Assembly (NCBI RefSeq): GCF_046105845.1
Contig: NZ_CP151004.1
Reading direction: 5' to 3' (one strand)
DNA: 64,000 bases
Source: Escherichia coli
GTDB taxonomy: Bacteria > Pseudomonadota > Gammaproteobacteria > Enterobacterales > Enterobacteriaceae
The position numbers and the translations under genes are program-made. The notes beneath the pieces are model-generated. The model was not told the DNA's origin. It saw only the letters and a list, made by a program, of their open reading frames with translations, and ran no database searches. This document shows positions 16,246-38,480 of the stretch, in pieces (within the stretch, counting starts at the first letter, position 1; each line of letters opens with the position of its first letter).

Positions 16246-16287
16246 GTCATACCACTCGCCTGATTATTTTTAGCTATGTTGGATTTT

Positions 16288-16314
16288 GCCACGGTTTATA
16301 CCGTGGCTTTTTTT
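16288..16314 (+). terminator. Rho-independent terminator after allE
   Basis: gccacggt-ttat-accgtggc hairpin followed by ttttttt. Confidence 0.7.
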
Positions 16315-16329
16315 GCGGTAAATTCAGGT

Positions 16330-26454: not shown

Positions 26455-26859
26455 TTATGCAAGTCGGTTGCAGGCGAAAAGTGGGTGATGCCAGACGTTA
26501 CGATGGTAATTCACTCCCTGTTCGCCGTTGGTAATAAACGCCCGCAGAGTTGACAGGTCTGGTTTGTCGTCACCTAACGCCACGACCACCACAAACACTT
26601 CACCTTTCATCGGGATAAAGGCCTGAGTACCCAGCGGATGACGTTCGAGTTCGTGAATGGTCAGCGGCAGATTCGCCGGTTGCGCGCGGTTAATGCTGAT
26701 AAGCGTACGGTCTTGCTCAAGAATCTCAACCAGCGCCAAATCGTGGTAACGCTCCACCAGGCCATTGTTAATATGGAAAAAATCCCGTTGCTGCGTTTCG
26801 ATTACATCGCCATAAGCACTAAAGGCTTCCTGACTTAACGGTAATACCTGAAGTTTCAT
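26455..26859 (-). CDS. allA: Ureidoglycolate lyase, apparently C-terminally shortened
   Basis: 134-aa [31 protein letters not shown]... ending ...[11 protein letters not shown], stop 55 bp upstream of allR start. Start at 26859 is bounded by an in-frame TGA upstream. Confidence 0.8.
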
Positions 26860-26964
26860 CTTTTTGTCCTTGTAACATAATTCCGTTCAACCACCGCCGA
26901 CCGGTCAGCTTGGTTTCAATAACAGGCAATCTAAAACCTTAAGAGAACAACATCAACACAAAAG

Positions 26965-26981
26965 TTGGAATATTTTTCCAA
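26965..26981. promoter_or_regulatory. Candidate AllR operator in the allS-allA divergent promoter region
   Basis: 17-bp palindrome ttggaatatttttccaa, near-identical to the one upstream of gcl. Confidence 0.6.
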
Positions 26982-27088
26982 AACTAGATTTAGTCCACAA
27001 ATTGAACAGGGTTATCATGTAAAAATACTGATAAATCAGAGGATAAGAAAATCACGCAACTTGCGGATTTAAAAGGGGATACCTGAAG

Positions 27089-28015
27089 ATGTTCGATCCA
27101 GAAACCTTGCGGACTTTCATTGCGGTTGCTGAAACAGGAAGTTTTTCAAAAGCGGCAGAACGATTATGTAAAACCACGGCGACAATCAGTTATCGCATTA
27201 AACTTCTGGAAGAGAATACCGGAGTGGCGCTGTTTTTCCGCACGACTCGCAGCGTGACGTTGACAGCGGCTGGCGAGCATCTACTTTCTCAGGCCAGAGA
27301 CTGGCTGAGCTGGCTGGAAAGTATGCCAAGCGAGCTGCAACAGGTGAATGATGGCGTGGAACGCCAGGTGAATATTGTCATCAACAACCTGCTCTATAAT
27401 CCCCAGGCCGTCGCCCAGTTGCTGGCGTGGCTGAATGAGCGTTACCCCTTTACCCAGTTTCACATCTCCCGACAAATCTATATGGGCGTCTGGGACTCGC
27501 TATTGTACGAAGGTTTTTCGCTGGCTATCGGCGTCACGGGAACTGAGGCGCTGGCAAATACCTTTAGTCTTGATCCCTTAGGATCGGTGCAATGGCGCTT
27601 TGTCATGGCGGCGGATCATCCGCTGGCGAACGTTGAAGAGCCGCTAACAGAAGCTCAGTTGCGTCGCTTTCCGGCGGTCAATATTGAAGACAGCGCCCGC
27701 ACCTTAACCAAACGCGTCGCCTGGCGATTGCCAGGGCAAAAAGAGATTATTGTTCCTGATATGGAAACGAAAATCGCCGCCCATCTGGCGGGCGTTGGCA
27801 TTGGTTTTTTGCCAAAATCACTTTGCCAGTCAATGATCGATAATCAACAACTGGTCAGCCGGGTAATCCCAACGATGCGCCCTCCTTCGCCATTGAGTCT
27901 GGCATGGCGCAAATTTGGCAGCGGCAAAGCGGTAGAAGATATTGTGACCTTGTTTACCCAACGCAGGCCGGAAATCAGCGGATTTTTAGAAATTTTCGGC
28001 AACCCACGCAGTTAA
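27089..28015 (+). CDS. allS: LysR-family activator of allantoin catabolism
   Basis: 308-aa ORF with N-terminal HTH; recognised AllS. Confidence 0.93.
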
Positions 28016-28068
28016 AAATCAAGTTTCCTTGCGCGTTGGCGCGTAAAATAGCGCGCAAGCTGATTTGA

Positions 28069-29178
<1,110 letters not shown>

Positions 29179-29241
29179 TGGGCGGTATTCTGAAACGGCG
29201 ATTGTCGTGAGAACAGAATGGTTGCACCAGAATACAGATAT

Positions 29242-29271
29242 AAAAAAACCGACATGACAGTCGGTTTTTTT
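29242..29271. terminator. Bidirectional intrinsic terminator
   Basis: Perfect 12-bp stem aaaaaaaccgac / gtcggttttttt with 6-nt loop; a U-run follows in either reading direction. Lies after selU (+) and at the predicted 3' end of the antisense sRNA (-). Confidence 0.6.
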
Positions 29272-29329
29272 ATTTTTTCCGCCCAAAACTTGGTGGTTCC
29301 GGGCAGAAATGAAACAGTCCTCATCTAGC
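29242..29329 (-). ncRNA. Candidate antitoxin sRNA of a type I toxin-antitoxin module
   Basis: Minus-strand promoter -35 TTGAAT (29364..29359), 17-bp spacer, -10 TATAAT (29341..29336); predicted start ~29329; terminator 29242..29271. Its 5' end is the reverse complement of 29315..29330, a 16-nt direct repeat of 29503..29518 in the toxin 5' UTR, so it can pair with the toxin mRNA in trans. Confidence 0.4.
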
Positions 29330-29335
29330 AAGTGA

Positions 29336-29364
29336 ATTATAAGTCAGGATGCCTACATATTCAA
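29336..29364 (-). promoter_or_regulatory. Near-consensus sigma70 promoter for the candidate antisense sRNA
   Basis: TTGAAT-17 bp-TATAAT read on the minus strand. Confidence 0.45.
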
Positions 29365-29589
29365 ACAGCTATGTTGGCGATACAATCCCGACGCTAGTAG
29401 TGATACTGCCTCAAGGGATTACCGCAGTGCGGAAAAGTACTTTTAAGTCCTGGTCAGGATACAGGTGGTGCTGATTCTGGTGCTCTAATTTGGAGAGAGG
29501 CAGTCCTCATCTAGCACATGAAGAAAATCATAGTTACAGGCAACGTAAGGGTAAGCTGTGATTGTCTTTCTCCCTTAAGGGAGCAACGG

Positions 29590-29673
29590 ATGAAAACTTT
29601 TCTCGATAAAGTTCTCATCATTCTTAAGGCGCTAATCGCGCTGCTGGAACTGATCCGTCAGTTTATTGAATAA
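29590..29673 (+). CDS. Candidate type I toxin: 27-aa hydrophobic membrane peptide (DinQ/TisB-like)
   Basis: atg...taa encoding MKTFLDKVLIILKALIALLELIRQFIE; SD-like aggga 7-9 nt upstream; single predicted TM helix; the ALIALLELIR stretch matches my recollection of E. coli DinQ. Too short to appear in the ORF track. Confidence 0.5.
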   Translation: MKTFLDKVLIILKALIALLELIRQFIE

Positions 29674-29690
29674 CTGAGGAAACGTAGCTA

Positions 29691-29745
29691 AGGCCGAAGG
29701 TTTACCACCTTCGGCCTTTAAAAAAACCGACATGACAGTTGGTTT
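29691..29745 (+). terminator. Tandem terminator-like hairpins after the toxin ORF
   Basis: GC hairpin aggccgaagg / ccttcggcct, then a degenerate second copy of the aaaaaaaccgac-atgaca-gttgg element with a T-rich tail. Confidence 0.4.
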
Positions 29746-29776
29746 CATATTTATTGCCAAAATGCACACTGTTCAT

Positions 29777-29875
29777 GCCAGATGCGGCGTAAACGCCTTA
29801 TCCGGCCTACACAATCTTGCAAAATCAATATATTGCACGATCCTCGTAGGCCTGATAAGCGTAGCGCATCAGGCA
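29777..29875. repeat. REP/BIME palindromic elements
   Basis: gccagatgcggcgtaaacgccttatccggcctac ... cgtaggcctgataagcgtagcgcatcaggc, inverted REP pair next to the ybbP stop. Confidence 0.6.
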
Positions 29876-29890
29876 ATCTAACGCCTGTCA

Positions 29891-32305
29891 TCATCCCGCA
29901 AACTGCCTGAACAGCGCCTTACCCTTAACCAGTCGCGCACCCAGCCAGCCGCCGAAAAGCGACAGCAGCAGTGCACCGCTGCACGGCAGCACAATCCACA
30001 ATCGCCAGTCTGGCTCCCACGGAAAATCAAACACTTTCGCCTGCAACACTGCCAGCGCCGTTTCCGCACCAATTGCGGCTACCAGGCCAGAAACAAACCC
30101 AAGCATGGCGAACTCACACCACAATGTCGTGCGCAGCAGCTTTTTCCCCGCACCGAGTGTGCGCCACACCACCAGCTCCTGATGACGCTGACGCATTCCC
30201 ACCTGCACCTGTGCCAGCAACAGCAACATACCGCAGGCGGTGACCAGCACCACCATCACCTCCAGCGCCCGACTTACCTGCTCCAGCACCTGACCGACCT
30301 GTTTTAAAATCGCGCCAATGTCTAACAGGCTAATGGTAGGGAACTGGCGGTTGAGTTGCGTCAACATGCCGTTGCCATTCTCCCAGCGGAAACTGGTAAG
30401 CCAGCTCTGCGGTTGCCCGTCTAATGCCCCTTCAGGGAAAATAAAATAGAAATTAGGCCGCAGACTTTCCCAGTCCACTTTGCGCAGGCTGGTCACTTTA
30501 GCGCGGAACTCCTGGGTATCGCCCATAAAAGTCACGGTATCACCGAGGGCAACGTTTAAGCGTTTCGCCAGCCCCTCTTCCATCGACACTTCATCGGCTT
30601 TTGGCGGCCAGTTACCGGCGACAATCGGATTATGATCGGGCCGCGTATTTTGCCAGGTAAGATTAAGTTCGCGATTGAGCGCCTCATCTTCATTGCCTTC
30701 TGTCGGCTTGCCGTTAATCGCCGTCAGTCTCGCCCGCACCACCGGATAAAATGATTCCGGGACTATCTGATGTTCCGCGAGGAACGCTTTTAGCGGTGCT
30801 ACCTGTTCTGTGGCGATGTTGATTAAAAAGTAGTTCGGGCTTTCTGGCGGTAGCTGCTGCTGCCAGCGGTCAAGCAGATCGCCACGCAGCACCAGCAGCA
30901 GTGCCAACAGCATAAAGGAGAGCGAAAATGCCGAAAGCTGGCTTAACGTTGACCACGGCTGACGTAACAGGCGGCTAACCGCCAGGCGCAGAGGTAGCGA
31001 TTTCAGCGTCATGCGGCGAAGTACATTCAGCAGCATCCAGCCCAGCACACCGCACAGCAAAGCCAGTACTACCGCGCCCGCCAGCACCGCCCAGAGCAGC
31101 ATACTGCCGCCCATTAATCCGGCGAGCAGCAGCACAACCACCACACTGACAATCGGCAGATAAAACTTGAGCGGCCAGACGTTCGCGACCACATCATTAC
31201 GCAATACGCGTAAAGGCTGCGTTGCCAGCAACAAGCGGTACGGTCGTAGCCCCACCAGCAGCGAGATGACCGTCATGGTGCCCAGCGCCCACAACCACGG
31301 CCAGAGGCTGGCTGGCGGTAGTGCAGCAGGCAGAACGGGCTTGAGCAGCACCATCAACACGTTTTCGAACAACAGGCCTATCGCCCCGCCGGTAACGGCT
31401 GAAAGCGTCAGCACCATCAACCACTGACCGACGATTAGCTTACGCAGTTGCGCTCGCCCTGCCCCCAGCGTTTTGAGGATCGCCACAAGATCGTAGCGAC
31501 TGCGACAGTAATGATTCATCGCCACCGCCACCGCTGCCACTGCCAGCAGCAAGGTCAGAAGCGCCGAAAGCAGCAGGAACTGTTGCGAGCGTTCCATCGA
31601 GCGCCCCAGCGCGCCTTCGTCCTGTTCCAGACCGTACCAGCGTTGTTCGGGTTTAAGCTGGGGTAACAACCATTTCTCATAGCCGTCGAGCTGGTTCTCG
31701 TTGCCGCCGAATTTATAGCGCCAGGTGACCCGACTTCCCGGCTGCACGGCTCCGGTTTTATCGACATCCGCCAGATTCATCATCAGACGCGGAGCCATCT
31801 GGAAGGGGTTAAAACCGGAATCCGGTTCCTGAATCACTTCTCCGGCAATCCGCAAGGTGGCATCACCCACGTCGATGGTGTCGCCTGTTTTCAGGTTAAG
31901 CAGTGCCATCAGGCGTGGGGCCAGCAATACGCTGCCCGCCTGCGGTTTCAGGCCAGGGGGATTAGTTTGCAGATCGCCATACATCGGGTAGATATCATCC
32001 ACCGCTTTGACGTTCGCCAGCTGCGGTGTGTCGCCTGCAAATGTCATGGTGGCGAAAGTCAGCTGCTTGCCGACTTTCAGGCCGCGCTTTTGCGCTTCCT
32101 CCAGCCACGCTTGCGGCACTTCGCGCGAACTGCGCAACGCCCGATCGCCCGCCATAAACTCCCGGCTTTGCTGGCTTAAGCCCTTCTCCATGCGATCGCT
32201 GATATTGCCCAGCGCCAGCACGCAGGCCACCGCCAGGCTTAGCGCCAGCCAGACAATTAATAGCGACGGCGAGCGCCATTCGCGCCAGAACCAACGTGCA
32301 ATCAT
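29891..32305 (-). CDS. ybbP: FtsX-like ABC transporter permease
   Basis: 804-aa multi-TM ORF, overlaps ybbA stop by 4 bp. Confidence 0.93.
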   Translation of the reverse strand: MIARWFWREWRSPSLLIVWLALSLAVACVLALGNISDRMEKGLSQQSREFMAGDRALRSSREVPQAWLEEAQKRGLKVGKQLTFATMTFAGDTPQLANVKAVDDIYPMYGDLQTNPPGLKPQAGSVLLAPRLMALLNLKTGDTIDVGDATLRIAGEVIQEPDSGFNPFQMAPRLMMNLADVDKTGAVQPGSRVTWRYKFGGNENQLDGYEKWLLPQLKPEQRWYGLEQDEGALGRSMERSQQFLLLSALLTLLLAVAAVAVAMNHYCRSRYDLVAILKTLGAGRAQLRKLIVGQWLMVLTLSAVTGGAIGLLFENVLMVLLKPVLPAALPPASLWPWLWALGTMTVISLLVGLRPYRLLLATQPLRVLRNDVVANVWPLKFYLPIVSVVVVLLLAGLMGGSMLLWAVLAGAVVLALLCGVLGWMLLNVLRRMTLKSLPLRLAVSRLLRQPWSTLSQLSAFSLSFMLLALLLVLRGDLLDRWQQQLPPESPNYFLINIATEQVAPLKAFLAEHQIVPESFYPVVRARLTAINGKPTEGNEDEALNRELNLTWQNTRPDHNPIVAGNWPPKADEVSMEEGLAKRLNVALGDTVTFMGDTQEFRAKVTSLRKVDWESLRPNFYFIFPEGALDGQPQSWLTSFRWENGNGMLTQLNRQFPTISLLDIGAILKQVGQVLEQVSRALEVMVVLVTACGMLLLLAQVQVGMRQRHQELVVWRTLGAGKKLLRTTLWCEFAMLGFVSGLVAAIGAETALAVLQAKVFDFPWEPDWRLWIVLPCSGALLLSLFGGWLGARLVKGKALFRQFAG

Positions 32306-32988
32306 GCTTCCTCCTGCAACTGCCCGTTCATCAGCCGTAAGCAGCGGTCGCAGCGTGCCGCCAGTTGCAGGTCGTGGGTCACCATAATCAACGTGGTGCC
32401 ATGTTCACGGTTGAGGGAAAACAGCAGGTCGGCAATTTTATCGCCCGTCTGGCGGTCAAGGTTGCCGGTGGGTTCGTCGGCAAACAGCACATCAGGTCGA
32501 CCATTAAAGGCTCGCGCCAGCGCCACTCGTTGCTGTTCGCCGCCGGAAAGCTGTGCCGGAAGATGATCAAGACGTTTACCCAGACCTAACTGTTCGAGCA
32601 ACGCTTTCGCTCCGTTACGACTTTCCGCGCTACTCTCACCGCGCAGCAGCGCCGGAAGCTCGACGTTTTCCAGCGCGTTAAGGGTAGGAATTAACATAAA
32701 TGACTGAAAAACAAAGCCGACGTGCTTCGCGCGCAACTTTGCCCGCGCTTCTTCGTCCATATTATGTAGCGGTTGTCCCACCAGACTCACTTCGCCACTG
32801 CTGCCGTCATCCAGCCCGGCGAGGATCGCCAGCAAAGTTGACTTACCCGATCCCGACTCGCCCACCAGTGCGATGGTCTCGCCACGTTTGACAACCAGCT
32901 CAACTCCGGTGAGGATGGAGAGTTCATGCTCCCCCTGACCGACGGACTTCTTAAGATGATGAACTTCAACAATGTTTTCCGCTGGCAT
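32302..32988 (-). CDS. ybbA: ABC transporter ATP-binding protein
   Basis: 228-aa ORF with Walker A GESGSGKST, signature LSGGEQQR, Walker B LFADEPTGNLD. Confidence 0.93.
   Translation of the reverse strand: MPAENIVEVHHLKKSVGQGEHELSILTGVELVVKRGETIALVGESGSGKSTLLAILAGLDDGSSGEVSLVGQPLHNMDEEARAKLRAKHVGFVFQSFMLIPTLNALENVELPALLRGESSAESRNGAKALLEQLGLGKRLDHLPAQLSGGEQQRVALARAFNGRPDVLFADEPTGNLDRQTGDKIADLLFSLNREHGTTLIMVTHDLQLAARCDRCLRLMNGQLQEEA

Positions 32989-38320: not shown

Positions 38321-38480
<160 letters not shown>

Follow-up and report, generated by a model that had tools for sequence, protein, structure and literature searches.

The Rhs-free selU-ybbP junction of an Escherichia coli chromosome, very likely a common allele of a multi-allelic hotspot, carries a dinQ-like cassette

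Introduction

What occupies the chromosomal site of the K-12 rhsD element in an E. coli genome from which that element is absent, and how is the absence to be understood? We address this question for the window, by which we mean the whole stretch of 64,000 nucleotides of contig NZ_CP151004.1 (assembly GCF_046105845.1) that was analysed. An original prediction, made from the letters of this stretch, stated that in K-12 rhsD and its associated ORFs lie between ybbP and selU, noted that the two genes are only ~710 bp apart here, assigned to the gap a small module plus REP elements, and called the site a strain-specific hypervariable junction. The literature provides a framework for this locus: in Jackson et al. 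2009 (PMC2935791), the site between ybbA and ybbB is rhs 'position 3', which those authors infer to have been gained after the split from basal lineages. Below, we describe the interval in the window and its comparison with K-12, the cassette that it contains, the alleles found at the same site in other E. coli genomes and the state of the site in outgroups.

Results

Layout of the interval

The variable interval is delimited by two convergent genes:

28084-29178, + strand: selU (mnmH/ybbB), tRNA 2-selenouridine synthase, an ORF of 364 aa; left edge of the variable interval
29179-29890, no strand: intergenic interval of 712 bp, the exact gap between the two convergent stop codons
29891-32305, - strand: ybbP, ABC-transporter permease, an ORF of 804 aa; right edge of the variable interval

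The ORF list and the sequence give the gene order allR, allA, allS, selU (+), then ybbP (-), ybbA and tesA. The RefSeq genome AST215, which is 99.55% identical to the window over 26471-32960 and 99.9% identical across the gap, is annotated allS-mnmH-dinQ-ybbP-ybbA. The K-12 MG1655 annotation reads ybbP-rhsD-ybbC-ylbH(pseudo)-ybbD(pseudo)-ylbI(pseudo)-ylbG-selU, which agrees with the order given in the original prediction, and places selU 7.3 kb from ybbP, against the 712 bp that the ORF list yields for the window and that had been estimated at ~710 bp. In BLAST comparisons with K-12, selU is 96.4% identical over 28000-29180 and ybbP is 97.1% identical. The two sequences remain homologous up to 29180, which is 2 nt beyond the selU stop codon, and are homologous again from 29885, 6 nt short of the ybbP stop codon; therefore, the entire ~704-bp spacer is swapped for ~7.3 kb in K-12. 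The longest ORF within 29179-29890 measures 51 aa.

The search for Rhs sequences covered the full window. With K-12 RhsD as the query, tblastn against the whole 64-kb window returned a best E value of 1.3 and no genuine match, and blastn with the DNA of the 7.3-kb K-12 island produced zero matches in the same 64 kb. The core-end motif PxxxxDPxGL was not found in a six-frame search, the gap contains no ~1,400-aa YD-repeat ORF of the clade I RhsD type, and neither the gap nor the 64-kb window holds relics of Rhs, ybbC or ylbG. The RhsD element of K-12 (rhs position 3) shares with the window its chromosomal site and flanking genes, and its occupancy is documented as variable among strains. Compared with that element, the window has no YD-repeat ORF, ybbC, ylbG or DNA similarity, and corresponds to the unoccupied state.

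The dinQ-like cassette

The small module and REP elements of the original prediction could be given an identity: the gap holds a dinQ-like cassette and a REP pair. The cassette comprises the following features:

29240-29328, - strand: AgrB-like antisense sRNA, a putative antitoxin; Rfam RF02891 AgrB, full length 1-84
29336-29364, - strand: sigma-70-like promoter of the AgrB-like sRNA, TTGAAT-17-TATAAT; promoter scan, 10/12 matches
29360-29386, + strand: candidate dql promoter, TTCAAA ... TACAAT; proposed solely because the region aligns colinearly with the sequence upstream of K-12 dinQ
29414-29515, + strand: dql 5' UTR region predicted by RNAduplex to pair with the AgrB-like sRNA
29590-29673, + strand: dql, a 27-aa DinQ-family membrane peptide, MKTFLDKVLIILKALIALLELIRQFIE; NCBIfam NF041472 toxin_DinQ
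29690-29745, + strand: dql 3' hairpins, consisting of a GC-rich stem at 29690-29718 and then a degenerate D1' hairpin at 29724-29745; repeat and terminator scans

The sRNA match to Rfam RF02891 AgrB reaches 51.4 bits against a gathering score of 40, and its predicted fold of -38 kcal/mol lies at z = -7.0 relative to shuffled sequence. The sRNA gene is situated 262 nt upstream of the dql ATG, from which it is divergent without overlap, and it is equipped with its own promoter and with a terminator that forms a perfect 14-bp hairpin. Transcription is predicted to start ~7 nt past the promoter, at roughly 29328, the position where the Rfam match begins. The candidate dql promoter overlaps that of the sRNA in divergent orientation and was missed by the promoter scan because its spacer is 15 nt long. 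A 22-nt direct repeat with 91% identity between its copies, D2 (29315-29336 and 29501-29522), forms the core of the pairing region, and through it the sRNA is antisense to the dql 5' UTR. The RNAduplex energy computed for the sRNA and the dql 5' UTR is -71.0 kcal/mol, against -44.2 +/- 4.3 for 200 shuffles (~6 SD beyond); for comparison, the K-12 agrB:dinQ duplex gives -87 kcal/mol.

Which peptide does the cassette encode? In AST215, PGAP annotates as dinQ a longer ORF of 51 aa at 29518-29673 (+). The NCBIfam model NF041472 toxin_DinQ scores 37.2 bits with the 27-aa form and 34.7 bits with the 51-aa form, the cutoff being 30, and the DqlB model reaches 23.2 bits with the dql peptide, under its cutoff of 35. 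A GGGAG Shine-Dalgarno sequence lies ~7 nt upstream of the ATG at 29590, and the likely product of dql is the 27-aa peptide that starts at this codon. A terminator-like site was detected on the + strand at 29724-29745.

The dinQ-like (dql) family was described by Kristiansen et al. 2016 (PMC5066626), and by its sequence the cassette matches a member of this published family of type I toxin-antitoxin systems. Alignment shows the dql unit to be colinear with K-12 dinQ-agrA at ~67% column identity. The layout in common with K-12 dinQ-agrAB (Weel-Sneve et al. 2013) and the dql family (Kristiansen et al. 2016) consists of a divergent upstream AgrB-like sRNA, a long 5' UTR with an sRNA-complementary repeat and a 27-aa hydrophobic peptide with ALIALLELIR. 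In contrast to K-12 dinQ-agrAB, which is located at arsR-gor, the window copy sits at selU-ybbP, has one agr copy instead of two, begins dql with ATG rather than GTG, is only ~67% identical in DNA and carries 40-nt direct repeats on both sides of the unit. By analogy with K-12 dinQ/agrB, the AgrB-like sRNA, transcribed divergently, would pair with the 5' UTR of the dql mRNA and this pairing would keep the 27-aa membrane toxin off; we infer the expression, toxicity and antisense control of the window copy from homology.

The PGAP name raises the question of SOS control. The canonical LexA operator, CTG-N10-CAG, does not occur within 29150-29900, and the 20-nt LexA consensus, with 3 mismatches allowed, has no match in the window. 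Every site returned by a looser CTG-N10-CAG scan departs from the core at one position, and this includes the best candidate, CTACATATTCAAACAG at 29353-29368. In the alignment, the LexA operator of K-12 dinQ, CTGTATGATTATCCAG, falls opposite a gap in the window copy. As a canonical LexA box is missing, regulation may differ from that of dinQ, and PGAP's label 'damage-inducible type I toxin DinQ' may give a wrong impression of this paralogue. Viewed separately, positions 29353-29368 and 29381-29410 of the window hold no counterpart to the K-12 dinQ LexA operator.

Repeats and insertion structure

The cassette lies within a segment that other alleles do not have, and several repeats mark its borders:

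29193-29765, no strand: segment missing from 'empty' and REP-only alleles; lies between ...ATTCTG and CACACTGTTCATGCC
29241-29280, no strand: direct repeat D1, left copy, 40 nt; doubles as the bidirectional terminator hairpin for the AgrB-like sRNA
29719-29758, no strand: direct repeat D1', right copy, 40 nt; 83% identical to D1
29776-29878, no strand: BIME, with a REP at 29776-29810, a spacer and an inverted REP at 29846-29878; REP consensus and Rfam ES036

Alignment with strains E50, N68 and EM10-18-28 defined the segment 29193-29765, whose GC content is 43% vs 54.5% for the window. The motifs ATTCTG and CACRCTGTTCATGC flank it in the window and directly adjoin one another in N68, E50 and E. 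albertii. Repeats D1 and D1' bracket a 478-bp unit, 29241-29718, that holds the sRNA and the toxin. A counterpart with a solo repeat was found in SCPM-O-B-8794 (locus L011, 11084-11340), where both arms of the cassette are joined via a single hybrid D1 copy and the cassette is absent. This genome is a GTDB representative labelled E. coli; its flanks are only ~94% identical to the window, and it is therefore probably another Escherichia species. Its solo-repeat state is either the scar of recombination between the repeats or the pre-insertion state. Among the best 25 matches in E. coli no solo-repeat allele was encountered, all of them being two-piece across the full cassette, and the form appears to be absent or rare in complete E. 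coli genomes.

To the right of the cassette, the REP consensus is present at 29781-29810 with 0 mismatches, 0 being expected by chance. Direct reading of the sequence places an inverted REP-like arm at 29846-29878, and the BIME spacer at 29811-29853 matches Rfam ES036 (40.3 bits vs a threshold of 37.6). According to the alignment, the window shares this BIME with the REP-only allele; copy number among alleles ranges from 0 to 2. As REP/BIME repeats go, 29776-29878 is a typical inverted REP pair between convergent genes, and there is nothing unusual about it.

Alleles among E. coli genomes

A census of 5,426 complete E. coli genomes was taken with junction-specific BLAST queries at a coverage of at least 80%:

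2,865/5,426 (52.8%): K-12-type ybbP-rhsD junction
1,319/5,426 (24.3%): the window's junction (dql allele)
573/5,426 (10.6%): Hcp-ET junction (extended-toxin Hcp, in which Hcp carries a fused toxin domain, and four DUF2931 genes)
339/5,426 (6.2%): REP-only gap of ~240 bp
128/5,426 (2.4%): 58-bp gap, with the type strain ATCC 11775 among them

These classes are based on coverage thresholds and not on explicit typing; ~196 genomes (3.6%) fall outside them and slight overlap between classes is possible. The comparison of this junction with K-12 and other E. coli thus yields rhsD in K-12, no rhsD in the window and several alleles elsewhere. The junction deserves to be called hypervariable, with at least five major alleles as well as IS and deletion variants; it is not strain-specific, because the window's form recurs in 1,319 of the 5,426 genomes and in another Escherichia species. 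Named carriers include ATCC 8739, O145:H28, PCN033 and E2348/69, which we take to belong to different phylogroups. Copies of the cassette with at least 95% identity occur in 1,325 E. coli records, a number close to that of the 1,319 window-type junctions, and this dql variant therefore seems confined to the selU-ybbP site. A recent plasmid origin of the cassette was considered and rejected: PLSDB matches above 95% are all mis-filed chromosomes of 1.2-4.9 Mb, and the true plasmid copies of dql/dqlB in PLSDB are ~70% identical in the toxin half only.

Is the cassette a working unit, or has it decayed? The cassette core is intact in 1,130 of the 1,319 window-type junctions. By subtraction, ~189 complete E. 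coli genomes appear to have a 108-bp deletion, seen at locus L006 (1501-2253), that spans window positions 29503-29610 between the near-repeats AGTCCTCATC and AGTTCTCATC, and takes out the sRNA target, the Shine-Dalgarno sequence and the dql start with its first codons. In E2348/69, an IS481-family element of ~1.09 kb (locus L003 10907-12000) is inserted at window 29364-29370 with a 7-bp target duplication; it falls exactly between the promoters of the sRNA and of dql, which diverge here, and the -35 and -10 elements of dql are probably uncoupled by it. These deletions and this insertion, together with the Escherichia species that has only the solo repeat, indicate that the cassette is dispensable, and they could be taken to mean that what is left of the small module has decayed and lost its function, the gap being effectively spacer DNA. 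For the window this is unlikely: promoter, sRNA fold, complementarity, Shine-Dalgarno sequence, ORF and hairpins are all intact in it, and Escherichia sp. E1V33, with flanks 97% identical, carries the dql allele with only 4 substitutions in the cassette, 2 of them in the ORF, where one amino acid is changed. A MAFFT alignment had given the appearance that the sRNA gene of E2348/69 is replaced; BLAST coordinates show this to be a misalignment around a simple IS insertion.

Exactly this selU-ybbP interval is where Hcp-ET T6SS effector islands, which the window does not have, are located in E. whittamii and in 573 genomes of E. coli; they therefore represent alternative cargo of the hotspot. In AVS0093 (locus L008 7195-11872) the cargo includes a 666-aa Hcp (TssD) with a C-terminal extension. 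Between 2 and 4 DUF2931-like genes sit 3' of the Hcp-ET gene; they may be immunity genes.

Outgroups and polarity

Species-representative genomes were scanned for SelU and then searched by tblastn with YbbP, RhsD and Dql. Across Escherichia, Citrobacter, Raoultella, Enterobacter and others, selU and ybbP are convergent neighbours and the fillings between them differ. The gap of E. albertii is REP-only and measures 248 bp, and in E. whittamii (locus L012 1140-4467) the interval contains Hcp-ET and immunity-like genes. Citrobacter sp. FP75 (locus L015 11092-14992) has between selU and ybbP a 4.1-kb insert that encodes a MetI/MetN/MetQ-like ABC transporter and a porin; therefore, the interval is variable at the genus level too. 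The Citrobacter-type transporter/porin layout is repeated at loci L016-L019 and L021. Among the outgroup genomes scanned, none of the non-E. coli loci shows RhsD beside selU. RhsD was seen beside selU only in one 4-kb contig (L045) binned as 'uncultured Alistipes sp.', in which SelU and RhsD are each 98% identical to E. coli; it is almost certainly mis-binned E. coli DNA in a Bacteroidota MAG.

Could this lineage once have had RhsD and then lost it, either by deletion or because recombination with an Rhs-free donor replaced the interval? The allele is present in distantly related strains, for example the four carriers listed above, and the divergence of the flanks climbs toward the junction. 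Identity to K-12 is ~99% in allS and allA and ~96% in selU beside the junction, with values of 95.7-96.7% over 28271-29170, the 3' two-thirds of selU; on the other side, ybbP is more diverged from K-12 than tesA and ybbO, so that divergence peaks beside the hotspot. Judged from the sequence, this drop in identity fits old allele-linked haplotypes or imported segments. Scattered carriers and flank divergence suggest that alleles move by recombination, which makes replacement possible, and allelic replacement would leave no scar. Nevertheless, we regard a past loss of RhsD as quite improbable. No Rhs, ybbC or ylbG relic survives in the gap or the window, and the motifs ATTCTG...CACRCTGTTCATGC and the BIME are common to E. 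albertii and the empty alleles, and could not have been restored simply by deleting the K-12 island. The late gain of position 3 inferred by Jackson et al. 2009 (PMC2935791) also speaks against a loss. Taken together, outgroups without RhsD, that published inference and the lack of any Rhs relic make an ancestral Rhs-free state the most likely, and on this comparison, which draws its polarity from a few outgroup genomes and a single paper, we consider the state to be probably ancestral and not a loss.

Could the absence have arisen during assembly? Rhs cores are repeats present in many copies, at which short-read assemblies often break, yet an artefact in which a repeated Rhs element was collapsed or skipped deserves practically no credence here: the gap consists of uninterrupted unique sequence that the complete genomes listed match from end to end at 98.7-99.9% identity, it is found at a coverage of at least 80% in 1,319 complete genomes, AST215 is annotated alike, and homology to K-12 stops precisely at both stop codons and not within an Rhs repeat.

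Discussion

Based on these observations, we propose that the window very likely represents one common allele of the known multi-allelic selU-ybbP hotspot, and that the Rhs element entered part of E. coli at a later time. The site has conserved flanks, five major contents in E. coli and others in Citrobacter and E. whittamii. The hotspot would exist in a near-empty state, with REPs only, with a dinQ-like cassette, with an Hcp-toxin/immunity island or with an RhsD element. The state of the window would then be the older Rhs-free condition to which a ~570-bp dql/AgrB-like cassette and a BIME have been added. Homologous recombination in the conserved flanks is the probable route by which alleles spread between lineages.

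What are the implications of such an arrangement? The absence of rhsD is a normal, widespread allele and ordinary strain variation, not a peculiarity of this strain or of its assembly. The junction census summarises in compact form how toxin-type cargo is exchanged at a hotspot, and is possibly useful for strain typing or for studies of polymorphic toxin turnover. The components themselves are already known: the variable rhsD site, the dql/AgrB family, REP/BIME repeats and Hcp-ET islands have been described, and the gene is annotated by PGAP. Only three points are mildly new: the lack of a LexA box, the 478-bp unit bracketed by repeats, for which a solo-repeat counterpart exists, and the allele frequencies. 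We speculate, as a tentative extension that we think is more probably wrong than right, that the dql copy, having no LexA box, is an SOS-independent DinQ paralogue, carried on a discrete unit of 478 bp that is bracketed by direct repeats of its own sRNA terminator and can be cleanly gained and lost, as the solo-repeat state of one Escherichia species would illustrate, and that selU-ybbP preferentially collects mutually exclusive conflict cargo. If this were true, the conflict cargo at the site would be a type I toxin-antitoxin cassette, an Rhs toxin or an Hcp-fused toxin.

Some minor observations were made elsewhere in the window and its neighbourhood. The interval ybbJ-cueR is a second variable interval nearby, with a YadA-like adhesin and hypothetical genes in some strains and a frameshifted ORF in others; this variation was seen at loci L003 21060-24287, L008 20741-21419 and L009 20925-23345. 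Two further Rfam matches in the window are above threshold, one to STnc480 at 16252-16318 (-) with 84.9 bits and one to naRNA4/CssrE, a REP-derived RNA, at 38370-38447 (+) with 71.9 bits.
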